Below are positions 5,274 through 31,430 of a stretch of 64,000 bases of DNA, in pieces. The stretch is from positions 11,057-75,056 of the forward strand of contig CAXHJY010000359.1 in the NCBI GenBank assembly GCA_964016885.1, read 5' to 3'. Origin of the DNA: Eledone cirrhosa. Taxonomy: Eukaryota. The translations under genes were made by a program, and so were the position numbers. Under the pieces are notes generated by a model. It did no database searches, had not been told where the DNA came from, and saw only the letters and a program-made list of their open reading frames with translations. How positions within the stretch are numbered: position 1 is the stretch's first letter; the number at the start of each line of letters is the position of its first letter.

Positions 5274-6181
5274 CGAGGTGTCAAAAGTTCCAGGACTGAT
5301 GTCACAAAAGATTTATTTCAAACCTAAACTTCACACTAAGAGGTTTTTCCTTCAAAGTAATCCCCCTGGATCTGGAGTCTAATGCACTTTTCCATCCTTT
5401 TCTGCCACGTTTGCATGCACTCCTGGAAGGATTCTTCCGGGATCCTCCGCAGTTCCGTCGTCACGGCCTTTTTGATGTCGTCTGCATCTTCAAAACGGGT
5501 CCCCTCCGGGTCGTACTCGAAGATCCATGACTCATCACCGGTGATGACTGTCCCTAGCAAGTCTGGTTCGGTTTCAAGACGCTCGAGGATGTCCTGGCAC
5601 ACTTGCATGCGTCGACCCTTCTGGTCATCGTTCAGCAGTTCTGGCACCATCTTCGCGCAGACTTTTCGCATGTCCAAATCTTCAGTGAGAATCTTCCAGA
5701 CGCTGTCTCGATTCATGCCCAGCTCATTTACCATCAGTCGAACAGTCAGCCGACGATCGCTACGCACCATCTGCCTGACGCGCTCAACGTTGACCTCAGT
5801 GCTGGTTGTTGAGGACCTTCCGCTCCAGGGGTCATCTTCCACGTCCTCGCGTCCTTCTTTAAACCTCTTGTACCACTCAAAAACACGTGAGCGTGACATC
5901 GTCTCATCTCCAGACACTTGCTGCAGCGGAGTTTTCCCCAACCGTACCAGAAACTTCAAGTTTGTTCGTTGCTCTGTGCTCATTGCTTGACGACCTGAAA
6001 CAGATGTATATAAAATTATGAAGAAAAAAGTTTGATCGCTGCAGAGAGCTAAGATAAGTTACATGTTACATACTCCAGGGGGGGGGGGGGGTACTTTGAA
6101 GGAGAAAACTCTTAGTGTGAAGTTTGGGTTTGAAATAAATCTTTTGTGACATCAGTCCTGGAACTTTTCTGACACACCTCG
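5274..6181 (-). mobile_element. Internally deleted Tc1/mariner (mariner) DNA transposon with ~97-bp TIRs and a TA TSD
   Basis: TA|CGAGGTG..TCAAAAGTTCCAGGACTGATGTCACAAAAG at the left end and its reverse complement at the right end, finishing CCTCG|TA. Confidence 0.95.
5336..5983 (-). CDS. Truncated mariner transposase (DNA-binding domain kept, most of the DD34D core deleted in frame)
   Basis: 215-aa ORF with SRSRVFEWYKRFKEGRE, DRRLTVR, CAKMVPELL and ITGDESWIFEYDPE, joined directly to GTRFED...QGDYFEG. The HDNA and YSPDLAP motifs are missing. Confidence 0.85.
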   Translation of the reverse strand: MSTEQRTNLKFLVRLGKTPLQQVSGDETMSRSRVFEWYKRFKEGREDVEDDPWSGRSSTTSTEVNVERVRQMVRSDRRLTVRLMVNELGMNRDSVWKILTEDLDMRKVCAKMVPELLNDDQKGRRMQVCQDILERLETEPDLLGTVITGDESWIFEYDPEGTRFEDADDIKKAVTTELRRIPEESFQECMQTWQKRMEKCIRLQIQGDYFEGKTS

Positions 6182-6499
6182 TATATTAAATATTAAAATG
6201 CTTTTTCATGTATTTTGTGAGTAGTTAGAATATATGAATTTTTAGTCAAAATGTATGTTCCTTATGGTGTGGAGGTGGGGTTCAACAGGTCGAGCATTCA
6301 ATATACCATGTTTCTTTTACATATCTCGAATCTTTAGTTTACGTTCAATTTATTATAACAGGAACATTTAACAAAATGAGTAACTACATGAATGACTATA
6401 AAATTAGAAAAACACTAAATATTTAAAAATGGAAAAGGAAGGTGCAAGGGCTTTAGGACCACATAAGAATGGGGGTGAGGGTGATAAGCTCTGGGCTTA

Positions 6500-7190
6500 G
6501 GGTGCGGTGGTGTTGGGGCTGTGCCTCGCGAACAGTGGCCAGCGATACACGCTGCAACAGCCACTCCACTTCGCGGGGCTCCTTCTTCAGACGGGCAGCT
6601 GTCGTTCCGATCTTGCGGAGGAGCTCTGTAATACGGGGTCTGAGTACGCCTGAGATCTTGACGGCGACCGGTACGAAGAGAAAGCGACTGGTATGTTTGT
6701 CGTCCTTTCCTCTACATTGCGGGCCGCAGTACCGGGGCTTGTGGTCGAAACGATTAAGCTGGCGACGGAGAACGTGTCACATGTGGCGTCTCAGATGAGA
6801 GTTCTACCTTCCTTCGAGTGGGAAGGAAATTCCATCGGGGCGCTTGCCACCTCCGCGGGCGAGGCCTGCTGGCTCCAGTTGTGATGGGAAGCTAGCTGCA
6901 TCCAGGCTCCTCAATATGTTGTTTCAATATGTTGTTCAAAGCGGAATGTCGGAAGCGGCCTGCGCTCTGGGGGCAAGACAGTGGATGCAGGCCGAACTTA
7001 TCAACGACCACCCGGCAACGGCATTTATGTGGCTCACACATGCGGAGGCCGAAATATTGGGCCACTCCAATGTGAGTGCACTCGTCATCAAGAAAGGTAC
7101 CTGTTGTTCAGGGGAGCACCGAATTGAGCCGCTGTAAAGCTGAGCAGAAACAGGCGAGGTAGTTTTGGTCCAAGCCAGACGTCAATCCGC
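6500..7190 (-). mobile_element. CRE-clade non-LTR retrotransposon 3' fragment (REL endonuclease)
   Basis: Minus-strand GKRPDGISF, LI*DATCDTF and KEPREVEWLLQRVSLATVR match the CRE motifs RPDG, WDATC and QRLSxAxQRGN. Confidence 0.75.
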
Positions 7191-7831
7191 TTGAAAAACC
7201 TTCATTTGATGTCATCCCAGTTGCCTGAAATCTTTTTTCCGATGTGTAATCGAATGAATATGATGTTTGTCATTTGTCTAAAGTGAGTTGCATTATTTAT
7301 TGCAGATGTGATACACGTAAAATCAATCTAAAACTTTTATTCAGCTGGCAATGGTAGTCAACAATTTTGTAGCAGGTTGTAGTAAAGCTAAGGAAAGTGG
7401 TATCGTCCATAACAGCACGAGCAAGTCATTTAACAATTCGTTCTCCTATATACACGGCATTAAGATATTATGTTCCTATTAATTGACATTTCACCACAAG
7501 ATATGTCAATAGCAACAGCAGCAGGTGTCGAAATTGTGGTATTCATATATCGTTGTCAGTGCTTTGCCCGGAGTATGAAATACGTGTATGGGGAAAGGAA
7601 ACGGATTGGCCACTTTGAACAGGCCTCACATTGAAATCAATACATTATATTGACAATGAATTTAAACGCCTAAACCTAAGAAAACAGATAATATAGTATA
7701 GAAAATGCACTAAGAAAATGCACGTTCAAATAAGAAGTTTTAAATAAACTAGAATTATGAATATATCTATGCTGACTCGTAATAGCTGTGAATTTGATTC
7801 CAAAGAGAATGTGAGGCCTAAACGCCTCTGA

Positions 7832-7960
7832 AGGCGTCTGGCTTAGCGGTCAGAAAATTGGATTCGGAATCGTGAGGTTGCTAGTTAGTTTCCCGGACCG
7901 GGCGATGCATTATGTCCTTGAGCAAAACACTAAGATACTTTATTTCACGTTGCTCTTTCT
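7832..7960 (+). mobile_element. tRNA-derived SINE head, same family as 4621
   Basis: GGCGTCTGGCTTAGCGG...TGTCCTTGAGCAAAACAC...TTTATTTCACGTTGCT. Confidence 0.6.
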
Positions 7961-8649
7961 GATTTTAGCACGGTTGCAGAATGTTTTATAGTCAGATTTT
8001 AGTGGAAAGTGTAACCACTTTGAACGAAGCGCCAGTGGTTTCACGGCTGCGGCTTTTCTTTTTTGCTTTGCGTCTTCCGGAACATAGGTGTTCTCGTTTG
8101 ATATTGGCCTTCATATTTTTCTGCCACTATGTGGTGTTGCCATTTGTCTGCCACACAATTTCATATTAGCATGTATGTATTGTTTTGTCTTTAGTGTAAA
8201 TCTAGGCGTCTCTCAAGTCGAACCATAGCTACATGCTACTTTTTATCATAGGAACCATAAATTAGCAACCCAGTTTGAAGATTTTCTTAGTAGTAGGTGT
8301 TGCAAATGGCTCTACCAACATGCTAGCCACAATCTGTTGTGGTTGGCTGTGCGAGATATATAAAATTATTTTTTATAGCTCTTTAGGCTAGTTATATTTA
8401 TGATGTGCGGGTACTAACAATTTTCTGAAGCATCACTTCCGACTACAAAACGTGTATATATTGTATTATATACTACAATATATATATATATCTATACAGG
8501 GTTCACGCCGACTATTCATAAATCCAACTTTACACCCACTGTAAAGTTCCCATTCTACCGACCAGCCGTGCATAATTGATCATGTCTATCCATTCTCAGC
8601 CATTTCAGTTTCGGGCACTGGCAACTCAGTTGCGAAATGGTTTCCGACG

Positions 8650-10230
8650 CTGCACCACAACGCCTGTCGAACTTGGATCCGCGTCCTCCTCGCGTCAGGC
8701 ATTCGTGAGTCGGAAAGGTGCTCGATCGCAGTTTAAAGCAGCTTTAAAAGCTACTCTCGGGTATCCTGCCCGACCGAAGCAACCGAGCGTTCCCAGGCTT
8801 ATTGCCCTAGAAAGAACACGCACACATGCTCTGAAGGGGTTGGTATTGACGTAGGCCCGAGTTGTAGGCGGCAACTGCTGATAAGGGTGGCGACGGGAGG
8901 CCATTGCGGGCCACGATATTAATATTGTTTTTGGCAAGTTCTGCAGTCTCGACCAGAATAAGTACGGTATCGTAAGGAGGCGGTGGTTACGGCGGATAAA
9001 ACTAGCTGGAATCAATTTGGGCAGTTGGAAAACTCCAAGACCACCCATTCGAGCTGTATAGGAAGTGCACAGAGGTCTCTCGTAGAGGTGGACAATCTTA
9101 CGAGTCGTGGAGCGACGATCGAGTCTAATGCTTCCAAGGCGCTGCGGGCTAGCACATTGTGACACTGTTGACTAAAATATTTACTTAAATTCTTAATTGA
9201 GAAGGTGGCGCATTTGGAGACATTGACCACCGGGTCAACCTCGCTGAAGAAATCAATGTTTTTATTGACTAAGCGCTGAAGTCTCACGGTAGTCAGCCAA
9301 GAGTACTGTTATTAGCGTCCATCGTATACTTCGCGGATAGAGGACAAAGCCTCAACGACGAGATCCGTGGCGATGTTAGAGTAGAAGCAATAGTACGTCC
9401 CCTTGTTTGACAACCCGCAAGATCGGAATGAGTTCAGTCAATTACGGAAGCATATTGACCGCTAATTGGTCGCACAGAAAATGAAGATTAAATGAAATAA
9501 CGTTTCGTTGGAAATTGAACTGGTGGTTCTAAATGACAGGAACTGTGTGTTGAATTGGAACATATGTCACTAATGTTCAATTGATTTCTAGAATGTACTG
9601 GTTTGATTTTCCACACGTGGTCACGGAAGACATTTATCTACGAGCACGAAACATGAACTGACTTTTAGCCTTAGGGAGCAGCATTTCGCTGACGGATTAA
9701 TCCCTGAAAGCTGGATATCATCGATTTTTAGATACACTAATATTGATCGTGTTTCCCCCATGATTTCACTGAAAATTTACCGCGCGTTTGACCTCAATAG
9801 AATAATGTATATCCATTGACCAGACGCTGCAGTCTCGCCGGAGAATCAGCCACCAGGGCATTGTCGTTCACGTACACCAAGTTAGATATACGTACTCCTG
9901 TCAACCTCTAAGTCACAGTTGATTTACAGGAGTGAGAGAACGACGTCCTGTTCGACTCCTTGGCTGATTTCGGTAAATCTGCTCGTTTCCGCTCATTCCG
10001 AGAATTTTTGTGGCCCAGCCGTCAGATCTTTCGTGCATCGATCGTATATGCTCGTGAAAGTCACGTCATCTCGTGCATGCAAAAAAGCAAGTGCTACGTC
10101 GTACCGATGTCCATCACCAGGTCGATGAAAACCACATCCAACATGTGTTACATTTTCAGATATGGGGAACAATTGCTAGAGAGCTGTCCAGACATCCAAG
10201 GAGATGCCGAGTTCTGCTTCGTTTAGTGTA
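8650..10230 (-). mobile_element. Highly degraded R2-like retrotransposon fragments
   Basis: VVFIDL, ISQGVEQD (cf. GVKQGD), LLSNIATD, VNVSKC, RKIVHL...MGGLG and a C-terminal RVLSRAISLG. Confidence 0.6.
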
Positions 10231-10289
10231 GAGCGAAGCAAAGTCCTGGGTTGCCTGTGTTCGGGTGTGTATTTACAATTTTTACTATT

Positions 10290-10830
10290 TCCTCATCTGC
10301 AGTTTCACCACTTGCTCACCCCCTCAGCGGTCTGGTGTCATGAGAATGAGTTGATAGATTTTATTAGAAATAATGACTTATGAATGACTTGAAGTGAGGT
10401 AGAGGGATACAACGCGTCAGCCCCAGTCTCTCGTCACTGCCTATCTATATCCAATGGCAAGACAATCGAAATGACTGGAAATGCAATGGATGGCTAGCAA
10501 TGGCATATACCTCACTGTTCCCTAATTGCTCTCCACAGCTCTGTACTATGTTACACATTCTACTCGTTGGACCATTATGGGTTAGTTTCCATGTAGTCCA
10601 CTGTATCAGTCTTTACAGGTATAAAGTTTTAGCCACTATTGTCGGTTAACCCTTGAGTTCCTCCGCCCTTTCATAGGTTTTGCTTTTCACTCCCATAGGG
10701 TGTCCCGAAATTACCCTGCAGGCTTGGTGAGGTTGCCGGTTTAGTCGATGAACTAACCATGTAATAGGTTGTACTGAGTTACATGTTACCAGTAGCGCTC
10801 GAGAGCGACCTAAGTGGACCTACTTACACT
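10290..10830 (-). mobile_element. RTE-clade LINE 5' region fragment
   Basis: 10295-10412 is homologous to 20790-20900, which leads into an RTE-type APE start. The rest of the interval is tentative. Confidence 0.4.
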
Positions 10831-11269
10831 ACAAACCTCAGATATGTACGAGTAGACGGGTCAGAGAAGTGCCACTAACCTACGGACAGAACATAAAACC
10901 AAATTTAGGTTTCGCCAGGCAAGACGTGATGACCGATCTTTTGATGCTAATGCGCTGGAAAAGCTAAGCTTCCTTTCGAGCATCACTTGATAATTCTATT
11001 TGAAGAGCCGCCAAAAATGACAAAAAGCTCGTTGTCAGCGGTTTAGCAGTGACCCCCGTCCTGACATTCGTATCAGCATCTATGGTATGAAGAGTATCTA
11101 ATATATTTAAGAAACCTGTATTACCAACACCTCCACCAAACTGTCAATTAAATTATATTTGTTTTGATGTGACTATTATTTCCAATATAGTTTCTCTACA
11201 CTCATCAACGAAACTCTTGAGGCTAGTGGTCTGGTCTGTAGTCTCTCTACACGAACAAGATAGCGTAGT

Positions 11270-13500
11270 GCGGCATAACTAGAGACCAGCAGACGAAGAT
11301 TCTTGCGAATCGCGATGGAAGGAATCTTTTTCGTCAATTGACAGTCAGCCCAATATCTCGTCTGCTACAATAGAGGAAAGAAACATAGGTCGTTTCATGC
11401 AGATACAGTATCTTATGGGTCCCTGCACGATTAGCCGTGTCCAGCGCTTCAAGATTACTCTGGGCAGGCGACACATGCGACAAGGTGTAGAACAGCCTCG
11501 GAAAGTAATATTGCTGCAAAAGATGTAACCTTTGTCTGGGTCCCAGTGGAGCTCTGCATATTTTATCGATACAGTGACACCTTCTCCACTGAAACACCGA
11601 TCTTGGAGTCCGGCCATGGGCCAATATTGACCCCTAAGTAAGAGCATTTATCTGCAGGTTCGATTCTCGAGAGCTGAGTTCCATCGATCTCTGGACATCG
11701 ATCTCTGGAGGAGGATCCGTGTTGACCAAGAAAGGTTTCTCCCACGATTGTACCGAAAACTAGGCGCATTTAGATATTCATCGCTGGCCACACTTCACGG
11801 CAGAACGACACGTATCTGTCAACGAGATGTTGCAGCTCCATTGGAGAGCCGACAACTAGCGCATTATCGTCCCCATACACCAAGGTCGACAACCCCACAT
11901 CTTTAACCAGTCAGCCACAGTTGGACAGAACGTCCATCAGCGAGTCCGTGGCTATGTTAAAAAGAAGAGGCGAGAGTGTATCTCTCTGCCGGACTCTACG
12001 CTTGATATCAATGAGTCTGCTCGTTTCCGCTCCGACCGAGAATTTTGTACCGCATCCTTCATAAAGACCTTTCACGACACCGATCATATGTTCGTGAAAG
12101 TCTTCTCATGGCTGCAAGCTCGAGTGATAGCAGAACCGATTGGAAGACCTTGGCCAGGTCGATGAAGGCAACGTCCAACCACCGGATCCTCAATCACGCT
12201 TCCATGCTGCGTTTGAGAAGCTGTTGCAGCAAGAACACGGTCTCGCTGCAACCGTCAGCACTTACGAATCCCCTTTCGGAAGAATTCAGAGGGGTTACCT
12301 GAAACATCCTATTGGAGAGTAACTTGGTGTATAGGCGATAAAGGATAGAGCATATCGTCAGGGGTCTCCAATTAGATAGGTCATGCGGATCATCCATCTT
12401 CTTAGGATTCAGGACAGACCTGCCGAGTTTCAAGCCATCGGATAGCTTCCAAATCCCGCAACATGCAGTTAAAGGTTCGCAAGAATTGCAGGGTCGTTGG
12501 CGCGAACCTGTCGGTGTGATTTCGTCGGTCCCCGGGGCAGAGGTTGATCTCTTACACCTCCGTACCACAACAACCTCAAACGAGGCGAATGGTTGCAAAA
12601 GCGGTGCGTTATCCGCCAGTTTCGTTCCAGGATAAGCACCGAGATCGACCTCCAGTCCCGGGTGGGAAAACTTGCCCGAATAAAAACCGACTCGATGTCG
12701 GCAACTGGGAAAGGACACCCCCATTGGTTTTCGTCCACTAAAATCACAAGGAGCTTCTTCCTATTACGATCGTACAAATTCTGGTAGCGAGCATAAAGCG
12801 CCCTACTTCCTTTACTTTTACTACCAGAATTCCTGTAGGGCCGTTTCGGTCTTCTCCTTACGGTCTTAATACGTCTCCTACGTGAGCGTGCCTGCTCCAA
12901 CCATCCTCTAACACACTGCGCAACCGCGCTCCGGCCCTCGTCCGTGACCTCATCACATAATGTGGTGAGGCACTCGTCAAAAGCAGCGCACCATCGAGAG
13001 CGACTCGCCTCCACTGCAGCGCCGAGCGAATTCCTCTAGGCGGCATCGTAAGATGCCGGAGAACCAGTTCCACTCACCTGGCTAGGCCGCCGCTCGCCAG
13101 CCGACTTACTTACGCGGGTAGGGGACTAATTCCTGCACTTCTTTTTATTCAAATCGCTCCTTTTCGAAATAATTTGCTGAACGGATTTTCCAGGCAGAAA
13201 CGGAGCGATACCTGCGTGGATGTGACCCACCGCAAGGAGTTCTTTCTTCACTTCACGCATCGCCACCTCCTCTTCAGGCCAACACGAGTATCGGGTAGCG
13301 CAGCCGTCTCCCAAGGGGCGGCTGCCGCACGAGTTGCACACTAACGCTCGACTTCCGTAGCGTGCCTTGCGATCCTCCGCCGATTGGAAATCTATTCGGA
13401 ACGCACATACGAATGGTAATTGTCGGTAGAGCTACATCAATACTTTGCGGCTGGCCAGGATACCCCATCTTATTCGTTCTAGTCAATGGTTTAACGGCCC
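11270..13500 (-). mobile_element. R2-clade non-LTR retrotransposon, degenerate 5' two-thirds (zinc finger, Myb, RT)
   Basis: Myb-like WPEEE...LPGKSVQQIISKR. RT motifs APGTD, NWRPLTICSILYRL, ERGF, DGCSE, VAFIDLAK and LFNIATD, then YGDDN and LHLLQQYYFPRL. Confidence 0.85.
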
Positions 13501-15089
13501 CCCCAACTGTCGTATGTATTCGTCATATCGATATACTTTCCATTTTTGGTATATGCTCTTAGTTCGTCGTTACGTGGAAGACAACTCGAGAATGGTTGCA
13601 CCTGTGAAGACAGCGACCGTCACCGTAAGCACTCTTCTCGTGACAAGGTGGTGTAGTTAAGAGAAAGCTGTTATAGCTAATGTATCTCACTACGTGTCGT
13701 ATCTCGTGGTTTAAATGTCTACATTTGCCAAACACCAGATATAGCCGTCATTCAACCACTCTTTAACGACATCCAGTCAATTGTTGGCACCTTCCTCGTT
13801 CTGTCCTAACAGTTTCTCCATCAATACTATTGCCAGCAGTCCATTAGCCCACATGTACCTAAACTATTCCAACTCTTTCCTTTTGACTATACCTTGAGCT
13901 TAAGTAATAGTCCTTTCGTTACAATGTTTCTAATGAGATTGTTTATGATACACAAATTCTTCAGACAACGCAGAATCTGTTGATTTAGTAATATAACTTT
14001 ATTTCTCATTAAGTTGGTGTTTGGAACATTAAGGTTCTTACATAAGATTATGACGGAAGGTTTTTTTTTTTTTTTTTTTTTGCTTTGATAATTATAAATA
14101 CTTTAAAATAAACGGCTTACATATGATCAGTGGCGGTTTCAGGTTTGTAATTGAGGGTTATTTTCTGAAGACATCCTGAAATTGATTGGCACCGCACCAG
14201 GAATATATCCTGTTAGTATCCACATTCTCAGGAACATTCTTAGTGGGGAAAAACACACAAAACGAGTAACTCCGAATGTAGGATGGCTTAAGGCTTGTTC
14301 AAGGCGAAGTATCTGAATGGTGACATTTTTCACCATTCAGATACTTTCCATTTGGCTCCTACCCATAATACATGTAATAGCAGGAAAAGGTGAAATCTCT
14401 TTAAAAAAAGACATCCTCGTGCGCGCCCCGTGGGGTCCATTGAAAAATCCGCCAAAAAGTTTCGCGCTAAGATTCGGACAAATGTTCGAAACATTCTGGT
14501 GGAGCTGAGCCATGCAGTATGGTGCTACCAGTTTATTAGGGAGCAATCATTAATGATACCAAAAAAGCTACAGCACCGAGCTGCATGCCCTATCGAAACC
14601 GATTGGACATGCAGAATAGACCATTGACCCAATCAGCTGCGGACGCAATAGGGAGGGCCTCACGCAGCTGCCAGCTGGATGGAGTCTGAGATGGTCTTAC
14701 GTCCGGGTATAAATGGGGTCCTTTATTAGCACCTAAAGCATATGGGGGATCGAGATCAGACAGCACAGCTGCCTAACCCGAGATATGAAACGCCTAATAT
14801 CAGGCTAGCCGGCATGACTAGTAAATTTGTGGGTGTGACCCGACGCCATTAACGAACGAACGTCCACCTTTAGAAACGATTGATATCCCACTGAACCATA
14901 AACAGTTGGGTTGTTTGTCACACCAACTCCCACTCGTTATGCCGGACATACATTGCTGTCTAAACAGCACTTCAGAACCGCTAAAGTATGCCTCTCCATC
15001 ACCTCCACAGCAGGTTGGGCCCCTTCAGTTACTGAAGCATAGCTTACGTTTCTGGCACCACAGGACGACACAACGTCTGAAACGACTCA

Positions 15090-19930: not shown

Positions 19931-20558
19931 ATTGGGTCGTTAAGTATGAAATTTGTAGAAACTGTTTTTTTTTTTCTTTTTTTTTTTTTTTTTTCTACAC
20001 ATTTCATACTTGACACAATATAACCCATTATTTCCCCATAGTTGATTTTCGGTGACCAAAAAACAGCTTTGGGAAACTGGTCAATAGTCACAGAAAATGT
20101 AGATTAAATGAAATAGTTTTATTGGAAATTGAACTGGTGGTTCAATATGACAGGAATTGTTGAATTGGAACAGGTCACAAATGTTCAATTGATTTCTAGA
20201 AATAAATATCTGTAATGTACTGGTTTAATTTGTCACTCGTGTTCCTCGCAAAACATTTATCTAGGGGTTTGAAACATGGACAAACTTTTAAGTTACATTA
20301 GGAGCATTTATCTGACGGATCGATCCTCGAGATCTGAAAGCCGAATCCCATCGAGTTTAGTAACACTAGTGTTGATCGGACACCCCCGCCCCACGATTTC
20401 ACTGAAAACGAGACACTTGGAGAGAGATACCGCGCGACCAACCTCACGATAGAACGACACATTTTTATCAACCTGGCTGGATTTATACTGCCTAATTGCA
20501 ACACCGGACATTCTGAATCTTTTCTTTCATGTTGTCCGAGTGCATATACCCAACAAAG

Positions 20559-20603
20559 ACCAAGATGCGTTTCCAAATGAGAACTGGAGCATCATCAGAT
20601 GAT
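20559..20603 (-). ncRNA. Possible degenerate minimal type I hammerhead ribozyme
   Basis: Minus strand ATCAT-CTGATGA-TGCTCCAGTTCTCATTTG-GAAA-CGCA-TC-TTGGT. Stems I and II are imperfect. Confidence 0.35.
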
Positions 20604-20619
20604 TGAGGCCATCTGGAAG

Positions 20620-20900
20620 CTTAGGGAATTTGCGAAAAAGCCACCGCTCCAAAACGTGTATCAACCACCAAATTCTGTGAGCTGGCACTTTGATGTGCTC
20701 GGCTAGTCTTTGTTGACCAGTGCTGTTCTTTGTTGTTGTCCAACAGATTTCGCAATTTCCACGTGCAAAGTTTGAGTTCTTTCCGCACCTGCAGTTTCAC
20801 CACTTGCTCACCCCTCAGCGGCATGGTGTCATGAGAATGAGTTTATAGATTTTATTAGAAATGACTTATGAATGACTTGAATTGAGGTAGAGGAATACAA
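20620..20900 (-). mobile_element. RTE (BovB-like) 5' region and APE start
   Basis: LKLCTWKLRNLLDN...AVAFSQ resembles RTE IGTWNVRTLLD...AALSET. Confidence 0.6.
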
Positions 20901-20904
20901 CTCA

Positions 20905-23100
20905 GCAAAAATATTGCTGCAAAACATGTAATCTTTACCGGGGTTTCAGTGGAGCCCTGCATATTTTATCAATACTGTGACACCTGCTCCACCTAAACAC
21001 TCATCTTGGAGTTCGACCATGGGCTGACTTTGACCCTTAAGAGCATTTTTCTGCAGGTTCGATTCTCGAGAGCTGAATCCCATCGATCTCTGGAGGAGGA
21101 TCCGTGTTGACCAAGAAAGATTTACCCCACGATTTTACCGAAAACTAGGCGCATTTAGAGATATTCACCGCTAGCCACACTTCACGGTAGAACGACACGT
21201 ATCTGTCAACGAGATGTTGCAGCTGCATTGTCGTCCCCATACGCCAAGCTCGACAACCCCACATCTTTAACCAGTAAGCCACAGTTGGACAGAACGTCCA
21301 TCAACGGGTCCGTGGCTAAGTTAAAGAGAAGGGGTTAGTGTATCTCCCTGCCGGACTCCACGCTTCATATCAATGAGTCTGCTCGTTTCCGCTCCGACCG
21401 AGAATTTTGTACCACATCCTTCATAAAGACCTTTCACGACATCGATCATATGCTCGTGAAAGTCTTCTCATGGCTGCAAACTCGAGTGATAGCAGAACCG
21501 ATTGGAACGCCTTGGCCAGGTCGATGAAGGCAACCGCCGAATCCTCAATCACGCTTCCATGCTACGTTTGAGAAGCTGTCGCAGCAAGAACATGGTCTCG
21601 CTGTAACCGTCAACACTTACTAATCCCCTTTGGGAAGAATTCAGAGGGGTTACCTGAAACATCCTATTGGAGAGTAACCTGGTGTATAGGCGATAAAGGA
21701 TAGAGCATATCGTCAGGGGTCTCCAATTAGATAGGTCACCGGATCATCCATCTTCTTAGGATTCAGGACAGACCTGCCGAGTTTCAAGACATCAGGTAAC
21801 TTCCAACCACGCAACATGCAGTTAAAGGTTCACAAGAATTGCAGGGTCGAGGGCGCGGACCTATGGGGCTGTGATTCCGTCGGTCCCTGGGGCAGAAGTT
21901 GAGTTCATACACCTTCGTGTCACATTCGAGGTGAATGGACGCAAAGGCGGTGCGTTATCCACCACTTCCATTGCAGGATAAGCACCTCCGGTCCCGGGTG
22001 GGAAAACCTGCCCGAATAAAAACCGACTCGATGTCGGAAATAGGTAAAGGACACCCCCCATTGGTTTTCATCCACTAAAATCACTAAAAGGAGCTTCTTC
22101 CTATTACGATCATACACATTCTGGTAGCGAGCATAAAGCGGCCTACTTCCTTTACTTTTACTACCAGAAATCCCGTAGGGCCGTTTCGGTCTTCTCCTCA
22201 CGGTTTTAATACGTTTCCTACGTGAGCGTGCGTGCTCCAACCATCCTCTTACACACTTCGTGATCGCTCTCCAACCCTCGTCCGTGATCGCTCTCCAACC
22301 CTCGTCCGTGATCTCATCTCCTACTGTGGTGAGACACTCGTCAAAAGCAGCGGATCATCGAGAGCGACCCGCCTCCACTGCAGCGCCGAACGAATTTCTC
22401 CAGGTGGCATTGGAGGATGCCGGAGAACCAGTTCCACGCACCTGGCTATGCGGCCGCTCGCCAGCCGACTTACTTACGCGGGTAGGGTACTGGTTACTGC
22501 ATTTCTTTTTATTGAAATCGCTCCTTTTCCAACTAATTTGCTGAACGGATTTTCCAGGCAGAAACGGAGTTGTGGATGCGACGGCACCCCGCCACAAGGA
22601 TCTCCCTCCTTTTCAAGAAGTATCACCGCAATTCCCACACTTATAGTTGAGGCTTGAGGCAGCGGAATTGTCGTCCTATCTTCTGCCTGTACATCGGCCA
22701 GAGTGGACTCTGAGCGAATGAAGGTGTTCACACTCCCTACCACATTTGGAACATTTAAAAATCAGCCTTCGCCAGACAAGTTGTGCGGACACCATAAACA
22801 AAACATTACGTTGTTGCACGGAATCTCCAGGCAATCCTCCTCCACTAGGGGCCTGTAGACCTCTTCAACACGACCCACGGTGTCGCGAGCCCATTGCGAG
22901 GGAAGCTGTTTGCCCTTCAAAACCAAGACGTGTGTACCGTAGTCAAAGGTAGATCTATCCGGAACGAACTTACGAATGGTAATTGTTGGTAGTCAGTCCT
23001 CGGAGATGATTACCGCTCGCCACGAGCGGCCATTACAGTAAGTCGCGGCTGGCCAGGAGACTCCCATCTCATTCCTCCTAGTCAATGGTTTAACGGCCCC
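20905..23100 (-). mobile_element. R2-clade retrotransposon, degenerate (paralog of 11270-13500)
   Basis: CCHC finger FKCSKCGRECEHLHSLRVHSGRC at ~22690-22760, then YKCGNCG, a Myb remnant FLPGKSVQQISWKR and RT motifs. Confidence 0.85.
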
Positions 23101-23911
23101 AAAATGTCGTATATATTCGTCATTCGATATACTTTCCATTTTTGGTATACGCTCTTAGTTCGTCCTTACGTGGAAGACAACTCGAGAATGGTTGCACCTG
23201 CCAAGACAGCAACAATCACCGGGGAAAATATTAGGAACTTAATAAAGACGATGCTGCCTCTCTCGTACAGCTTTTTCCCAGATGTAAGTACTCTTCCCGT
23301 GACAAGGGGGTGTAGTTAAGAGAGAGGTCTGTTATAGCCAATATCTCTCTACACGTATCATATCTCGTGGTTTCAGTGTCTGCATTTACCAACCAAGCAT
23401 CAGATATAGCCGTCATTCAACCACTCTTTAACTACATCCAGTCAATCTTTGGCACCTTCCTCGTTCTCTGTCCTAGCAGTAGTTTCTCCATCAATACTGT
23501 TGAAGCATATTAAGTAATAGTCCTTTCGTTACAATGTTTCTAATGAGATTGTTTATGATACACACATTCTTCAGACAACGAAGAATCTGTTGATTTAGTA
23601 ATATAACTTTATTTTTCATTAAGTTGGTGTTTGGAACATTAAGGTTCTTACATAAGATTATGACGGAAGGTTTCTTTTTCTTTGATAATTATAAATACTT
23701 TAAAATAAAGGGCTTACTATATGATCAGTGGCGGTTTCAGGTTTATCAAGGGTTATTTTCTCAAGACATCCCGAAATTGATTGGCACCACACCAGGAATA
23801 CAATCTCTTTGCGACACAGCACAAGAAGATAGGTAAGCATTTTCTGTCTGAAATTAATAGTAACATTTTCTGACAAAGATTTCAAAACTGCATTTTATAT
23901 ACAAAAACAGA

Positions 23912-23985
23912 AACGTGGTTTAGTGGTTGAAGTGTTCTGCACACGATCGTAATGTCAGGAGTTGAAATTCCGACAGCGCGTTTCT
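23912..23985 (+). mobile_element. tRNA SINE head
   Basis: CGTGGTTTAGTGGTTG...CACGATCGTAA...GAGTTGAAATTCC. Confidence 0.5.
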
Positions 23986-24689
23986 TTTTGTCACATGTGC
24001 TTACTTTTTCTATTTGGTTCTAGTAAACCTCCTCCATCGTTCGCGAGTAGGACCTGGAAAAAGAATATTGTTAGTATCGACAGGAACGTTCTTAGTGGAG
24101 GAAAAACATGTGAAACTAGTAACTCCGAATGTAGGATGGCGAACGCCTAGACAAACGGAGGTATGGTGACATTTTTTACCATTCAGAAACTTCCAGCCGG
24201 CCCCTACCAATAATACATGTAATAGAAGGAAAACAAAGTGAAATCTTTTTAAAAAGACGTCCTTGTGAGCGCCCCCGCGGGATCCATAGAAGACGCCCCC
24301 CCCCCCCAAAAGAAAAATATCTTCAGCCTAAGTTTCCGTCAAATGTTCAAAGAATTCTGGAGCTGAGCCACGCAGTATGGTGCCACCAGTTTATTAGGGA
24401 GCAATCACTAATGGTATCAAGAAACCCACAGCACAGCACAGCACGATCGAAACTGATAGGACATGCAGAGTAGACTTTTGACCCAATCAACTGCGGACGC
24501 AATAGGGAGGCCCTCACGCAGCTGCCAGCTGGATGGAGTCTGAGATGGTCTTACGTCCGGTATAAATGGGGGCCTTTCTTAGTTCTTAAAGTTTGTAGGG
24601 GTTCGAGATGAGAGCACAGCTGCCTAACCCTAAACATGAAACGCCTAATATTAGGCTAGCCGGCAAGAGCACCAAATTTATTGTGGATG

Positions 24690-24995
24690 TAACGTCGGCG
24701 ACCTTGGACGAAGCTCCACATGCACCAACGGGCAGCTGTGAACCACGTCTCGCCCATCCAATTCTTCCTGAAGGAGAGCAATCTGTGGCTGATATTTACG
24801 CACCTTCTCCGTTGCTTCGTCATTCAAGCCTGTGCATTGCTCGTACCGAACTGTTACGCCCACCACCGCAGTGAATCCCACCTTTCTCGAGGCCAAATCT
24901 GGGATAAGCCTTTTTTGTTCCACATAAGTTGGCAAAATGTAACATAACGATAAATTGCCATTCAGTGTGATGGTCTGCAGCCTTCGACAAAGCGC
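24690..24995 (-). mobile_element. R2-like REL fragment (paralog of 15115-15350)
   Basis: LIPDLAS...VTVRYE...TEKVRKY. Confidence 0.75.
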
Positions 24996-25724
24996 GTACT
25001 GAGGCTTGGCTTGAGACGAGCATGCGGATTTAAGACTGAAGGTCTGTTATTTTGAAAGTCAGTCGTAATAGACTGATCAATTAATCTCTGGAGTCTGGAG
25101 GTTTGTTATTTTTCATATACTCGCACTACTTATCAACAAAATTCTCGAGGTTGGATGTCCGTTATTTTTATTCATTCATATATTCAATCAATCTTTGTCC
25201 CCTTTCTTGTCCTCTGTCCGAGAAGTAGCCTCTCCATCAGCCCACATGTGCTCAAACTATTCTAACTTCCTCCCTTTCACTATGCCTATAACTTATTTGA
25301 TTGTTTTGCCGATTTTACGCACCTTATGTATGTAACCGTTTCGTTACCACCTCTTTGAGATTTTTATGCACAATTCTTTCTAACAAGGAATAATCTAGTG
25401 TGATTTACTAATATAATTTCTAAAATTTAATATTTGGAACATTAAGATCCTTATATAGAATTATGATGGAAGTTTTGTAAAAATAATTATAAAAACTTTG
25501 AAATAAACAGCTTGGTATGATATAATCGGGGCGGTTTCAGTTGGGTTGCTATCAAGGGTTCTTTTCTCTTCAAGACATCCCGAAATTCATTGGCACACCA
25601 GGAATACAATCTCATTGCGACACAGCACAAAAGGATAAGTGGGCCTTTTCTGCCTTTATTGTTGTCTTGTTGAAAATAATAGTAACAGTTTGTGACAAAG
25701 ATGTCAAAACTGCATTTTATATAT

Positions 25725-25925
25725 ATTACCTTGACCGGCCAGACAGTCGGATCGCACTTTGAATCTTCTGTCCACAGCATATCATCCATTCCCTTTTTGA
25801 TCTCGCCATCCTTCTCCATTTCGGTCCCATCATTCCCTTTGTGATCAATCGGAGTGGAGGCCTTCCGAGGGGTCGTTTTGGCTCGCCTCGGTACCACTCG
25901 ATGGAGACATGGGTTCGGCCGTGTG
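25725..25925 (-). mobile_element. RTE LINE 3' end
   Basis: EWYRGEPKRPLGRPPLRL matches the RTE C-terminal WxPxxxKRxxGRPxxRW motif. Confidence 0.65.
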
Positions 25926-25929
25926 ATCG

Positions 25930-27245
25930 CACCAGGGATGCTGTCGTGAGCGTTTAAGGCGGAGAAAGCGACTCGGTCTCTAAGCATATTGAGCGTGCTC
26001 AATATCTTCCGGCGACAGGTAAATATCTGGAAGGCCTCGTCACCGATACCTAGCACCTCGAGTGCCTCATCTGCTGCCCCGGACAGGGACCCGCACGAAC
26101 CCATCGGGCACCCATGAATCAGCACAGTCGGTCACTGCTCAGATCTAAGATGCTTTACAAGCTCGCGATATTTGCGGACCTTCTCATCGGCCGCGCATCT
26201 TGAAGCGGGCGGTAATATCGAGCACAACGATAGTGTCCCCCCCATTCTCAGAACCAGGTCCGGAATTAGGTGCATCTGGTTGACACGGAAATCGGCTCCG
26301 ACCAGCCGCGCAACCAGTGACATTTCAGCTTGAGGCATTGACCACTGAGGTGGGAAATGGAGTCACACAGCTCCACAACGGCTACATGCCTTGGAGCCAC
26401 AGCTACCTCGAGTTAAACATTCTTAGGCTGGAAAAGTGTTGGAGTGCAGCTTCAGGCAGTTCAGAAAGCTACTCTTAACAACTCGGCTGAAGCAATTAAG
26501 CATTCCTACCTCAATCTTTCCCGGTATGCACACTCGATTTCTTGCAATCTAATGGGACATTCGCCCGGCAGATCCAAGTATCAAAGTTAAGAGCAGTTTC
26601 TTATTGTGATCGAAGATGTGCTGGTAGCCGGTAGTGTCCGCCGCTAGCACCGCCTCCGCACGAGGGAGACCGATCAGTACTTGGCCCGCGCTTATTTTTA
26701 ATATTCATACGGATACTTGTACGGGGTTTAGTCGTACGGAATTCCTACAGCCAACCGTAAAGGCGGTCAGAAAAGGTTCGCTAGGAGAGTCGTGCCTTCT
26801 TCACACACTGATTGGGCACTCAACGGAGGTCGCCGAAAGCTGATCGTCACGGGACTGCTGCATTGACGAAGCAGTCCCACCAGGATGTACCCCCCGGGGT
26901 ACAGTGTTCAGGACCGGCTCATGTGTGACACTGACTCGGTGTCATTTGCTGGCGAGCTCTTTATTACCATGGGTACGCTGCTGCTCGGCCTTGTAGCCAC
27001 GGCTGGACACTGCACAGTCACTGGCTTAGTTGATCTGCTCTTCGCTAGTCACTAATCTGTTTCCTGGTCTTGCCGCGAAGATGTTCCTCAGGAGTTGCGT
27101 TGACGAAGGGGGCGCGGATCCTCAGAAGTTCATCACTTTACTCGGTGTGTAATGATTTCTTCTTTAGACCAGTAGCCTCGGCTCTTTCAGTGGGTCTCGA
27201 GCTCAACCAATCTCCTCACAGCGCGCGCCTCACTTCTTATGAGCG
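25930..27245 (-). mobile_element. R2-like fragments (Myb at ~27.1 kb, REL and C-terminus at ~26 kb)
   Basis: HLIPDLV...ADEKVRKY...HGCPMGSCG...LEVLGI...RRKILSTL, and RGYWSKEEI...GKTRKQISD. Confidence 0.75.
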
Positions 27246-27545
27246 TTTCGAATCTTCTGTCCACAGCACATAATCCGTTTTATCTCGCAATCCTTTTCCA
27301 TTTCGGTCTCTTCATTCTCTTTATGTGATCAATCCAGCTGAGTGTAGGCCTTCCGAATAGCCGTTTCCGTTCGCACTAGTACCACTCAGCAACTTCACGG
27401 GTCCATCGATTATCAGTGGCCTGTGTGACATGTCCAGCCCATCTAAGTTTGTTTGGACAGTACTCGGCGATAACGTCCCTTAGTACTGTTCTTTCCCTGA
27501 TCTGCTCATTTTGGATATCTCTGAAGTCGATTCCCACTGCGTTGG
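27245..27545 (-). mobile_element. RTE LINE 3' end
   Basis: KLRWAGHV and EWY...RKRLFGRP motifs. Homologous to 25725 and 28285. Confidence 0.65.
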
Positions 27546-28284
27546 TGAAAGAGTTCCTCCTGGCGGAGTCGGTAGCTGCCGGGTTGCCAGTTAGTCATCT
27601 GGCTAGACGGCTGTTCGTCAGTTCAAATATTCTAAAAGGTAGGGGACCGTATTTTGCATGTTTTTATTGATGTTCTTTTTCGAACTGATCTGCGTTAGTC
27701 TTTCCCGGCTGTAAAGGAGAGGCATCAACGTTAATGCGACGGATTCTCGCCAATGGGACAGTGGTCATGAGGTTGAAGGACTATTATTTCTGATGTCGTT
27801 ATCAATATACTTATAAACTAAACCCTTGATGCCTGTTATTTTTAATGTCATACGTAATACATTATAAATGAAACTCTTGAAACTGAAGGTGTAGTATATC
27901 TGATGTAGTTTCTCTCTACACTTATGAACGAAACTCTTGTGGCTGGTTGTCTGGTATTACGAATTTAGTCGCATTTAGAACACCTCGAGCTTGTTCAGGT
28001 CTTGCTTGAGAATGTTCCAGGTCTAAATGCTGTAAAGGACATGTAGGACCAGCGTGCGTAAAAGACAGATCCTGGTCCTTTGGGAGATATGAGGCTTCTT
28101 CCAGACACACCATCGAAGGGACCCAAACGCAGAAGTCGCAGACCCGATTTGGCAGATGGTCTTTGCTGTTGTCGCCATTTTGTTTTTTCTGCAGGTAAAA
28201 ACTGCGCCTTTTCTGCCTTTATTGTCGTCTTGGAACTAATAGTAAGTTTGTGACAAAGATGTCAAAACTGCATTTTATATATAC

Positions 28285-28620
28285 CAAATTGACCGGCCAG
28301 ATAGTCGGATGGCGTTTTGAATCTGCTGCCCACAGCCTATCCATTCCCTTCTTGATCTCTCCTTCCTTCTCCATTTCGGTCTCATCATTCTCTTTATATA
28401 GTCAATTCATGAGTGGAGGCCTTCCGAATGGCCGTTTCCGCTCGCACGGATACCACTCGATAACTGCACGTGTCCATCGATTATCAGTGACCCATGCGAC
28501 ATGTCCGGCCCATCTGTTTGTTCAAACGGAACTCGGCGATAACGTCCTTTATTCCGGTTCTTTCCCTTTTGGATATGATCTCTAAATGAATTCCCGGCAT
28601 TGACCTTTATATGGCTCTTT
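28285..28620 (-). mobile_element. RTE LINE 3' end
   Basis: RWAGHVA and EWYP..RKRPFGRPP motifs. Confidence 0.65.
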
Positions 28621-28659
28621 GCGCTAACGTTTCTTGCATCGCAGGACGGCACAAAAAAC

Positions 28660-30140
28660 TCTTAAATGATTAATTTATGCTCCCCACCACCAACATAACA
28701 ACGTCGGCGGCTTTGGACCAAGCTCCACATGCACCAATGGACAGCCGTGAACCCCGGCTTTCCCACCAATTCTTCCTGCAGCAGAGCAATCTGTGGCTGG
28801 GATTTTGCACCTTCTTCGTTGCAAGCAAGGTAGAGCCTTGAATGAGGAGGCACCGGGCTGTTAATCCCAACACCACGCGGGTTCCCGCAATTCACGTAAT
28901 CAAATCTGAGATAAGACTTGTTTGTTCAACACTGTAAACTCAACCCTTGCCTATCCTTCAGCCATGGCGCGCACTCTCACCTGCAATCAACTGGCAAAGA
29001 TGGCTGGTTATGCCTGACCACCCTTTGCCTTTTCAGCAAAGGATATTGGCCACAGATGTATGCAATTGTCTCTGCTGCAACATAACACCAACATAACCAC
29101 ATCGGCGGCTTTGGACCAAGCTCCACCACAAGCACAAATGGCTTTCCCACCCAAATCTTCTTGCAAGAGGGCAATATGTGGCTGAGTTTTTGCACTTTCT
29201 TCGGGGCCTCGTCATTCAAGGCCCTACCCTGTCGGCAACGGACTGTTATGGCCAATACCACGCGGATTCCGGCCATTCACGTCATCAAATATGGGATAAG
29301 ACTAGTTTGTTCAACACTGTAAGATCAACTCTTGCCTACCCTTCAACCATGGTACACACTCTCACGTGCAATCAACTGGCAAATATGGCTGGTTTTTCCT
29401 GACCATCCTCTGCCTTTTCAGCAAAGGATATTGGCCACAGATGGGGGCAATTGTCTCTGCTGCAGCATGGCAGCGTTTGCAGGCCTTTGAACGGGATTCA
29501 TATTAATTCGCATCTTGACACAATTCAAAAAGCTCCCCTCGGAGATCCCACTCGGCTGGAGCAACCAATCGTTACCGTTTGGGTCATCCCTGACGGCTTG
29601 CGATGCCCACTTCTCGGCGTGTTCCCGGTGAAATCCAGGCGTGTACCTCGGTGGCATACCGTAACTTCGCCACTCCGTGTGGTGAGGTCTGCAGACGTTG
29701 ACAAAGCGCGTATAGCGGTGTGGCTAGAGGCGTACAAGATGAGGTTCCGTGGATCCTTACTAGAGGGTATTGTCTCCGGCGGCTGACAGTGACTCGGGTA
29801 ACAATCAACCCTGCCACTGTACAAGAATGAAACCATGGTAGACTCATGCGGATGAAACATCCTGTGTGTCCGCAAGCGAATAACCGTATCTAGCAAAGAT
29901 TGTAATTATTCCGAGCAGGTAGGAGCTGTGACATGTAGAACCGGGGCAGGTAATACTGATTCAGGAGATGGAATTTCTGCTGGAGTTTCAGTGGAGACCT
30001 GCATATTTTGTAGATACAAACACACCGGCTCCACCGAAGCATTCATCTTGGAGCTTTGACCCTACGTACGAACACTTTTCTGACACTTCGATCCTCGAGA
30101 GCTGAATCCCGTCAAAGTTTGGCGGAGGATTCGTGTTGAG
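28660..30140 (-). mobile_element. R2-like 3' half with a ~385-bp tandem duplication of the zinc-knuckle/REL region
   Basis: LQQKFHLLNQYYLPRFY and KWASQAVRDDPNGNDWL...FLNCVKMR. The blocks 28895-29085 and 29280-29465 are near-copies. Confidence 0.75.
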
Positions 30141-30339
30141 AAATAATTGGTGACGGTGTGGTGGAATGATGGTAGTGGTGGTAGCATTGGAGGGTGGTAT
30201 AAAATGTCAATGTTGACACAATTATGAGTTAATCAGTAGTTTGAGTCAGCTAAAATTGAGCAGATCTATGATGAAGTGCGTTCCAACCGAAACCATCTTG
30301 TCTTGTTTTCAATGTATCTATAACTACTTTGTGTTTTAT

Positions 30340-31430
30340 TATTATAGGGCGTAAAGGTTCAACATATCACATGATCCACATGACAGGTGCAATGTGTCTG
30401 AACACGGAAGATCCGAACTGCCACTGTCATCCCTCGCCATCTCTCTGTATTGTGAGCAGTGGAGGAGGAAGATTGTTGTTTTGAGAGGTAATTCGCCATA
30501 CTTGGTCACTTTCAGGGGAATGATATCGAGCCTCGGGGCTCTAAAAGATTGGATGGACTTGAGTGCAGCTTCAAAATCATGATAGGTAGGGTTGGCAGAC
30601 ATTGTCGCACAGGGTGCTTTGGGGTGCGTTTGAGAAAGTTTTGTACTACAGTGCAGTTAGAACTGAAACAATATTTTGGTGATGTCAGCCGCTTCGAGGA
30701 TAGATATAGACATCCTGACGGGCCCGAAAACCTTGTTTCTTTAGAAGAATTCTCATATTTTGGCGGTCAGCGTATTGTATTTCTTCGGCCTTATCTCTCC
30801 ACCAGTGCTTTCAGGATTCTGCGGAGCTCCCTTTGGTAGCAGGCCTTGGGATGGAGGAATTTGGCTTTCAGTCGTTGAGATGATGGGTGGGATCCATACT
30901 GAAATTTGGCTTTCCGTTTCGCTTATTGTTTTTAATCTCTCAGCTACAAAATTATGAAGTACACTATTTCTAACATTGAATTGTGTTAAATATTTTTTTA
31001 GAAAATATTTCATTTGGAATTGTTGCTCTATGGTCAGTTTCCTTGGATTGGTATTTCTGGTGTTGCTACCCCGCCTATCTTTAGATGCGTTCCAACCGTA
31101 TTTATGCATGTCGAGGAATGTTTGTGTCCTTTTATTCTTTTTAAACGGTAGGGTGTTATTTGATTGCTATTTCTAGTAGGCTCTCGTCAGGTTTATTGGG
31201 GAATAGGTAGAACGGACAGCTAGAGGGGTCCACTAACCGACACTACGTTTTAGCTTAAGCGACATTTCGGGAGACATTTGGTTTCTACTGTGAGCCTGTT
31301 GAAGACTACATATCAAAGGCCTTGTAACATTTCTAAAATGTTGTCCCCCCCCACCCCAAGTTTATATTTTTATAACTGATACAAAAGTGTTTCTAGTTTG
31401 AGCTGGTAGATTACAAATAAACTTGTCACC
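30340..31430 (-). mobile_element. RTE (BovB-like) LINE internal fragment
   Basis: NPTYHDFEAALKSIQSFRAPRLDIIP...KYG resembles RTE PTxxEVxxAI...KAxGxDxIP. Confidence 0.6.

Follow-up and report, generated by a model that had tools for sequence, protein, structure and literature searches.

A 26-kb block of transposon fragments

The window, a 64,000-nucleotide stretch of the unplaced 75-kb contig C386 of Eledone cirrhosa, contains a 26-kb block of co-oriented transposon fragments at positions 5274–31430, an interval that was picked post hoc. The left end of the contig is mostly microsatellite, and the left flank of the block (1.1–5.2 kb) carries a plus-strand CR1 element at 2.0 kb. The right edge falls just before a plus-strand CR1 (matches at 31969–33041) that lies inside the second copy of an internal duplication. 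All 30 bins of 8–28 kb were covered in three DNA runs from one sample, possibly the source of the assembly itself, with low and even depth outside the high-copy repeats; the assembly of this part therefore looks sound. The features are listed below.

5274–6181, minus: mariner transposon, bearing terminal inverted repeats and flanked by TA; 240-codon frame with HTH_48, catalytic part mostly deleted
6417–7194, minus: C-terminal fragment of an old non-LTR element, which we take to be CRE-type from its motifs
7815–7965, plus: tRNA-type SINE, its head oriented by what are presumably A/B-box motifs
8570–9400, minus: R2 piece i, late reverse transcriptase (RT) to endonuclease region; DNA identity about 64% to extant lineage 2
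9473–18651, no strand: old direct segmental duplication, copy 1
9660–10142, minus: R2 piece ii, RT region; about 71%
10650–10815, no strand: high-copy non-coding repeat, first piece
10943–11044, minus: short CRE-type piece (38.5 bits); DNA depth very high in its bin
11230–13670, minus: R2 piece iii, 5' two-thirds of an element, including the 5' end and a decayed leader derived from 28S; 72–75% to lineage 2
15032–16392, minus: R2 piece iv, C-terminal region, split by piece v
15445–16076, minus: R2 piece v, young 3' end, 89–94% to a C14 copy, then 7 28S target bases (15445–15451)
16540–16983, minus: duplicate (82–84%) of 30929–31459, from which alone its RTE identity and strand are taken; no protein match of its own
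17213–17352, plus: tRNA-type SINE, duplicated at 33448–33572
17642–18174, minus: young high-copy CRE-type 3' part, copy 1 only
18172–18400, no strand: high-copy non-coding repeat, second piece
18732–18852, minus: R2 piece viii, 3'-terminal UTR of lineage 1 (z 10.5 against 40 shuffles)
19735–19935, plus: tRNA-type SINE
20089–34146, no strand: duplication copy 2, longer, with extra material at about 25–31 kb and 31.5–33.3 kb
20251–20472, minus: R2 piece from the RT region, probably duplicating piece ii
20908–23335, minus: second copy of R2 piece iii (86%), likewise with a 5' end and a decayed leader derived from 28S
23905–23990, plus: short tRNA-type SINE head, self-match only, read from the sequence
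24693–24992, minus: duplicate of R2 piece iv, lacking piece v
25716–25914, minus: RTE 3' end, family a; flank common to the 28.3-kb copy
25976–27134, minus: R2 piece vi, C-terminus and weak upstream remnants, internal deletion
27243–27567, minus: RTE 3' part, family a
27534–27742, minus: R2 piece x, N-terminal coding region, lineage 2
27969–28193, minus: RTE piece, family b
28274–28624, minus: RTE 3' part, family a
28622–30179, minus: R2 piece vii, C-terminal half, internal 400-bp tandem repeat
30361–30458, minus: extreme 3' end of a young CRE-type element, 92% to a dispersed copy
30463–31459, minus: RTE piece, family c; 30463–30909 oriented through two genomic relatives, the remainder by inference
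31969–33041, plus: CR1/L2-type LINE, copy 2 only, opposite to the other pieces and outside the block
33137–33284, plus: tRNA-type SINE, copy 2 only

The span 9.5–18.65 kb is directly duplicated at 20.1–34.15 kb with 73–95% identity, an old tandem duplication that inflates the number of pieces, as the sequence-only reading of this DNA had cautioned. Protein matches cover only 40% of the block. No feature was annotated at 7.2–7.8, 8.0–8.5, 10.15–10.65, 14.2–15.0, 20.5–20.9 and 25.0–25.36 kb, and an atlas search with one frame of no assigned family gave no match. A comparison of 25 copies of the high-copy non-coding repeat gave no orientation. The mariner match was the self-match of a library member, and its sense was set by the Pfam HTH_48 domain.

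All tblastn matches in the block are on the minus strand (34/34 at the standard and 38/38 at the sensitive threshold), and reversed and complemented decoys of window positions 1–47 kb gave no match of at least 28 bits. The sequence-only reading had likewise placed every orientable coding fragment on one strand and the SINEs on the other, where we find all four tRNA-type SINEs of the block. Its tally stands for the mariner (one) and RTE (seven pieces) and needs correction for R2 (about 13 rather than about ten) and CRE-type elements (four rather than two). Once duplicates are collapsed, 8/8 independent non-R2 insertions agree with the R2 strand (p 0.004); agreement is 8/9 (p 0.02) with the plus-strand CR1 inside the duplication counted and 8/10 (p 0.055) with both flanking CR1s. 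Random controls carry no regional bias, 162 of their 323 block pairs being concordant. The agreement of at least four unrelated families, an argument of the same reading, is weak on its own, since two of 19 informative controls are fully concordant (6:0 and 4:0, three families) and one is 6:1 over four families. Of the insertions confined to a single duplicate, the CR1 and one SINE are plus and the CRE-type element and R2 piece v are minus. The independent SINEs at 7.8–33.3 kb are all sense to the predicted precursor (5/5, p 0.06). A general tendency of LINEs and SINEs to lie in opposite orientations was rejected: the controls did not have it (rho −0.16, p 0.54, 17 regions), and neither did the R2 loci described below, where SINEs, unlike those of the window, have the same orientation as R2 in 11 cases and the opposite in 6.

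Simple repeats make up 0.2% of the block. In 20 random control stretches of 30 kb, the median is 7.0% and the lowest value 1.4%. The block is nearly free of microsatellites, as had been claimed, but the supposed dominance of microsatellites in the flanks does not extend to the left flank at 1.1–5.2 kb, which also lacks simple repeats. Three other identities for the region were rejected: a haplotig of a chromosomal locus (five sub-regions had no long near-identical match), a telomeric array (no telomere repeats are present) and an array of rRNA, tRNA or snRNA targets (none was found in the window).

Identity, age and junctions of the R2 pieces

The block consists mainly of R2, in six or more pieces that were acquired separately and differ in age. 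Their DNA identity to extant copies ranges from about 64% to 94%, and overlapping pieces that are not duplicates mostly share 35–62% of their amino acids in the best segments (at most 68% in one short segment). Seven or more such pieces would meet by chance within 26 kb with a probability under 1e-13, even if the genome had 5,000 R2 copies. The closest long relatives (L040, L041 and L054) carry LSU rRNA at their junctions and are inserted at the 28S R2 site; on sequence grounds, the window pieces are true 28S-targeting R2. They share with 28S rDNA-specific R2 the RT and zinc-finger domains, the 28S-site insertion and the 28S-derived 5' leader, and the coexistence of two R2 lineages in one genome is common to this genome and to 28S-specific R2 elsewhere, as far as the available text of the sources goes (PMC5035012, PMC3774820, PMC13188248). 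Unlike those elements, the window copies are broken, lie outside rDNA and are mixed with other transposons. No rRNA match was found at 1–47 kb of the window. What remains of 28S junctions are the 7 target bases after piece v and, at each copy of piece iii, a decayed leader; in a fuzzy scan alone, 28S junction sequences did not rise above background. Most of the pieces are only 62–75% identical to extant copies and are too diverged to guide silencing of present-day R2 well.

Folding of the R2 5' ends for an HDV-like ribozyme gave none that folded better than shuffles, a comparison made by plain folding, which cannot model the pseudoknot. A protein database search with one R2 frame, restricted to longer lengths, gave no match at E 1e-10. 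Template-jumping by R2 was rejected as the source of the whole mosaic on two grounds: the SINEs are reversed, and the mariner is bounded by inverted repeats and TA flanks of its own. The true 28S type of the R2 pieces, their junction remnants and the head-to-tail stacking of R2 had all escaped the sequence-only reading.

R2 loci elsewhere in the genome

We surveyed the orientation of non-R2 blocks (transposons and parvovirus-like inserts) at 26 other R2 loci. This count excludes the window, two loci without any block other than R2 (C7 and C4:236) and C23, where R2 had no protein match. At the 12 microsatellite-poor loci, 46 of 61 blocks side with R2, compared to 19 of 46 at the 14 ordinary loci (46:15 versus 19:27, Fisher p 0.0006), under a microsatellite cut-off first set after inspection of the data. 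Without the two discovery loci the microsatellite-poor ratio is 34:14 (p 0.006), and all 26 loci pooled give 65:42 (p 0.03). A pre-specified test of flanks gave 17:3 for new microsatellite-poor flanks and 12:13 for the others; with a strict recount of the former at 11:3 (p 0.057), the flank test is supportive but borderline. Counted by locus, the sign test stands at 8 versus 3 with one tie (p 0.23).

All piggyBac blocks (5/5) and all parvovirus-like NS1 matches (4/4) at the surveyed loci are co-oriented with R2, and both families were absent from 60 control pieces; the query library was hand-picked, and its rare families came from C18, so that loci resembling C18 were more likely to yield them. 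Co-oriented neighbours also occur at loci with a single R2 (7:0 at C6 and 4:0 at C25). Microsatellite-poor loci with larger rDNA remnants have no bias (1:1, 3:4 and 0:1), and R2 loci embedded in rDNA are microsatellite-poor as well. At C18, a short 28S leader joins 3' ends of lineage 1 to 5' ends of lineage 2, in an array that lies after a 391-bp 28S remnant. Such alternating head-to-tail stacks are not described in the available text of three R2 studies (PMC5035012, PMC3774820, PMC13188248). The candidate sister loci are as follows:

C18: 15.03–15.09 Mb
C3: 332.08–332.11 Mb
C6: 10.30 Mb
C12: 8.97–9.01 Mb
C25: 0.69–0.73 Mb

A candidate uni-strand piRNA source and its alternatives

We consider the chances about even that the block, an old and duplicated R2-rich pile outside rDNA, is or was a uni-strand piRNA source, possibly now decayed. 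The predicted transcript, from the plus strand, would be processed into guides antisense to R2, CRE, RTE and mariner elements. R2 cDNAs may now and then have landed off-target here or next to earlier R2 junctions; insertions antisense to the predicted long transcript would be retained, and duplication would multiply the templates. The CR1 and SINE insertions on the plus strand came later and suggest a loose or lapsed constraint on orientation. Poly(A) signals on the predicted precursor strand are depleted (13 versus 28), a depletion that was not consistent over the sister loci (5/8).

The idea of a uni-strand piRNA source gains support from the repetition of the pattern at sister loci, the R2 enrichment of oyster piRNA clusters and the improbable pile-up of R2 outside rDNA. 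In the Pacific oyster, R2 is enriched 149-fold in piRNA clusters (PMC6128900). The class 1 (germline) clusters of this mollusc are R2-rich, like the block, and are also enriched in Gypsy and DNA transposons; they differ in being defined by small-RNA data and rich in young elements, whereas the pieces in the block are mostly old (PMC6128900). The available text does not report R2 orientation or stacks in them (PMC6128900).

The label "flamenco-like", which the sequence-only reading had proposed, fails on content. According to the accessible part of the study that describes them, flam-like clusters are defined by antisense Gypsy, and in somatic follicle cells env-bearing Gypsy drives their bias, as it does that of flamenco (PMC10643416). 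Three Gypsy frames taken from this genome had no match in the window, although Gypsy is present at sister loci; holding no Gypsy, the block is not a member of the flamenco family. It resembles flamenco and flam-like clusters in its dense one-strand transposon remnants, its internal duplication and its being findable from the genome alone; candidates from genome-only strand bias gave piRNAs from one strand in each of the two Drosophila species for which data existed (PMC10643416). It differs in its core of about 26–29 kb, known here from DNA sequence, which is dominated by non-LTR elements and by R2 in particular. Drosophila R2 is itself listed among the elements controlled by dual-strand clusters (PMC10643416).

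Part of the bias is explained without piRNAs by R2 self-stacking and duplication, since head-to-tail stacking gives R2 copies one orientation with no need for selection. As a full account, in which R2 repeatedly inserted at earlier R2 junctions in a stray rDNA fragment and the resulting stack was duplicated and decayed while other elements agree by chance, we find this rather unlikely. The leader-joined lineages and 28S remnant of C18, the target bases and decayed leaders of the window, the demonstrated duplication, the microsatellite poverty of rDNA-embedded R2 loci and the upstream 28S duplications documented at R2 5' junctions, in the accessible text of PMC3774820, are all consistent with it. 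However, self-stacking predicts neither the co-orientation of mariner, piggyBac, Gypsy, Helitron, L1 and parvovirus-like inserts nor the one-sided neighbours of the single-R2 loci, and the loci with larger rDNA remnants are unbiased.

Another account places the contig in a host gene on the plus strand, within a long intron or lncRNA from which sense LINEs were purged for disturbing elongation or ending transcripts early. It would fit the plus-strand excess of T over A, which is seen in the core and in each flank (T/A 1.09–1.17). It would also fit the extension of the minus bias across the window (19/22 fragments), where a young CR1 (55–58 kb) and a Penelope element (60.8–63.6 kb) are minus too. 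Yet no convincing exon was found: a low-sensitivity Pfam search with the 148 longest of 164 non-transposon frames gave two marginal matches, both below the cut-off. Random regions, many of them expected to be intronic, are without pair concordance, and a host intron leaves the R2 pile-up and the microsatellite gap unexplained; we regard it as improbable. Still more improbable is an insertion-side bias in a special chromatin domain, through a fixed replication direction or strand accessibility and without selection or small RNAs. LINE-1 insertion is known to have a replication-linked bias, and the strand bias is tied to a distinct microsatellite-poor and SINE-poor compartment (0.6 versus 2.4 SINEs per 10 kb). 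But the same action would be needed on cut-and-paste transposons, LTR elements and viral inserts, the SINEs and CR1 of the window are oppositely oriented, and telomere repeats are absent.

R2 is transcribed within pre-rRNA, and antisense RNA from rDNA would also hit rRNA; a source of anti-R2 guides is therefore awkward for the host. R2-bearing loci without rRNA flanks would offer a way to make R2 guides that spare rRNA. From the genome sequence we propose, tentatively and as a possibility we doubt somewhat, that this genome has a family of microsatellite-free, one-strand candidate piRNA loci in which successive R2 subfamilies are archived one after another. Re-insertion of R2 at R2/28S junctions would build head-to-tail antisense stacks inside them, the rDNA-resident parasite would be silenced from outside rDNA without guides against 28S rRNA, and stray R2 would mark such clusters from sequence alone. 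A search of open main texts found no publication on cephalopod piRNA cluster architecture or one-strand R2 archives. The oyster enrichment, as given in the available text of PMC6128900, hints that the solution extends more widely in molluscs. The outcome is a short list of testable loci: C386, C18, C3, C6, C12 and C25.

Strand and duplication in the transposon pile

The sequence-only reading had described positions 5274–31430 as a transposon graveyard with every orientable coding fragment on the minus strand, and a protein-level search with our own library placed all 34 transposon matches there on that strand. The library comprised unchanged long frames of the same genome, their sense set by Pfam where possible and otherwise by similarity to Pfam-fixed frames; the labels CRE, RTE, RTEX, L1/Tx1, CR1/L2 and R4 are presumptive, assigned from motifs. 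At a sensitive threshold, 38 of the 41 matches within 1–47 kb were minus; the three plus matches fall at 2.0, 32.0 and 41.7 kb. Decoys gave none. Simple repeats occupy 0.2% of the interval versus a median of 7.0% in controls (20 seeded random 30-kb regions), and all four tRNA-type SINEs are plus, so both its reported scarcity of microsatellites and the plus orientation of its SINEs hold. The one-strand pile is a real feature of the window, which spans bases 11057–75056 of contig C386, unplaced and 75,056 bases long. The animal genome, 3.0 Gb in 1,796 contigs, resembles those of cephalopods in its size, AT microsatellite load and types of SINE. Reads from three DNA runs, all made on one sample, are present throughout 8–28 kb with scattered allelic differences, and searches with five sub-regions found no second near-identical copy.

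Local duplication was rightly suspected of inflating the fragment count. Self-comparison revealed a direct repeat, with 9.5–18.65 kb recurring at 20.1–34.15 kb (73–95% identity), and smaller repeats; collapsing duplicates reduced the RTE pieces from seven to three or four insertions and the R2 pieces from about 13 to nine, with at least six separate acquisitions. The second duplicate carries two plus-strand elements absent from the first, a CR1 and a SINE, just past 31430. Eight independent non-R2 coding-family insertions remain, namely one mariner, four of CRE type and three RTE, and all of them have the orientation of R2 (p 0.004). Counting the inner CR1 gives 8 of 9 (p 0.02), and counting both CR1s 8 of 10 (p 0.055). 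Controls had no general strand bias, with 162 of their 323 block pairs in agreement, yet two of 19 were fully concordant and one was 6:1. Therefore, the strand bias of the window taken alone is suggestive rather than decisive.

R2 content of the window

The R2 fragments discussed below are as follows.

11230–13670, minus: R2 piece iii (duplicate at 20908–23335)
15032–16392, minus: R2 piece iv
15445–16076, minus: R2 piece v
18732–18852: 3′ UTR end of a lineage-1 R2 (z 10.5)
28622–30179, minus: R2 piece vii

Long relatives occupy the R2 site of 28S rRNA, which identifies the window pieces as true R2. No rRNA match was found in the window. Junction traces do remain: piece v terminates in 7 bases of the downstream 28S target, and each of the two copies of piece iii opens with the decayed remains of a 28S leader, after which comes the lineage-2 5′ end (lineages 1 and 2 are working labels, not published clades). 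Such leaders fit the ribozyme cleavage 9–36 nt upstream in 28S described in PMC3774820. PMC5035012 describes R2 families that lack 28S specificity, along with a copy outside rDNA in oyster, and co-existing R2 lineages are known from PMC13188248. Most overlapping non-duplicate pieces have 35–62% of amino acids in common and identity to extant copies spreads over about 64–94%; R2 thus entered on several occasions spread across a long period. One older duplicate may account for pieces iv and vii (75–77% DNA identity). The chance of seven arrivals within 26 kb is P < 1e-13 even at 5,000 copies. A short perfect inverted repeat (15408–15440) adjoins the 3′ junction of the young piece v, as if it arose in repair of the insertion.

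Orientation at other R2 loci and candidate explanations

Beyond the window, we looked at 29 R2 loci, of which 26 entered the count. Over all 26, non-R2 blocks on the strand of R2 outnumbered the others 65:42 (p 0.03). The ratio was 46:15 at the 12 microsatellite-poor loci versus 19:27 at the 14 others (Fisher p 0.0006; rho −0.49, p 0.012). Without the C18 and C3 loci described below, the poor class gave 34:14 (p 0.006); counted per locus, the 12 poor loci split 8 to 3, one being tied (p 0.23). Because the microsatellite cut-off was chosen after seeing these data, a prediction was written before scoring 20 new flanking stretches. These gave 17:3 in nine poor pieces versus 12:13 in 11 others, or 11:3 (p 0.057) versus 9:11 once blocks continuing from the centre were left out. 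SINE density was 0.6 per 10 kb in poor pieces versus 2.4, and opposite SINE orientation was not seen in the poor pieces (11:6).

The C18 locus (15.034–15.089 Mb, stretches L043–L048) is a one-strand block of about 55 kb in which lineage-1 and lineage-2 R2 alternate, joined via short 28S leaders; this stack (C18:15.03–15.09 Mb) stands behind a 391-bp 28S remnant. Gypsy, piggyBac, L1, R4, Tc1 and two parvovirus-like NS1 matches share its strand. The block is younger and cleaner than the window and is the best candidate for RNA tests. At C3:332.08–332.11 Mb, 15 of 15 fragments are co-oriented.

The likeliest reading, to which we give roughly even chances, is that the microsatellite-poor R2 compartments are uni-strand piRNA sources; the pile in the window has the layout of such a cluster. 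Off-target R2 cDNAs and other elements that landed antisense to a long transcript would be retained and be amplified by duplication; in the window, the predicted precursor would be plus-strand. The pieces are old and plus-strand insertions came later, which suggests a decaying locus. The earlier likening to Drosophila flamenco does not stand, because the locus falls outside flam-like clusters by their Gypsy criterion. Germline piRNA clusters of the oyster show a 149-fold enrichment for R2 (PMC6128900), piRNAs have been studied in an octopus (PMC12479628), and cluster candidates picked from the genome alone turned out to be real in both of the Drosophila species examined in PMC10643416. Among the papers listed by our literature search, none described one-strand R2 archives or the architecture of cephalopod clusters.

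R2 self-stacking and duplication surely contribute to the R2 part of the pattern; that they explain all of it, with the other families agreeing by chance, is a possibility to which we give about a quarter of our credence. Placement in a host intron could also impose one orientation, but no convincing exon emerged from the 148 of 164 frames checked and we regard this origin as unlikely. A bias in the side of insertion seems improbable.

Additional features of the window and R2 loci

Several further features of the window were recorded.

10650–10815 and 18172–18400: two portions of a high-copy non-coding repeat about 1 kb long (also in stretch L150); 25 copies showed no linked coding frame
13900–14205, 23510–23901, 25356–25723 and 28200–28274: a repeated AT-rich module, its common flank followed in one copy by a SINE and in other copies by an RTE 3′ end
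44684–44929 (250 bp) and 45579–46071 (about 500 bp): long imperfect palindromes, probably MITE-like
55044–58147, minus: young and almost complete CR1-type LINE, matching a dispersed copy at 97%
60841–63597, minus: Penelope-type frame of 919 codons

The last two stand between long microsatellite arrays. Elsewhere, R2-bearing rDNA units or fragments lie on several chromosomes (C2:166.88, C2:251.16, C10:26.69, C4:236.74, C7:29.28, C14:23.17 and C3:72.17 Mb), and the R2 of stretch L040 has an unbroken 1,214-codon frame. Parvovirus-like NS1 inserts at L043:7014–8540, L187 (about 8.1 kb) and L216 (about 6.6 kb) are all co-oriented with adjoining transposons, and none occurred in 60 control pieces; the C18 insert has a 509-codon frame with Pfam Parvo_NS1, and the C12 matches are weaker. 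Next to the C18 block is a VRR-NUC domain frame (L049:1354–1953, minus), and the C3:72.17 Mb R2 has a C2H2 zinc-finger array frame (L072:4786–5571, minus) nearby.
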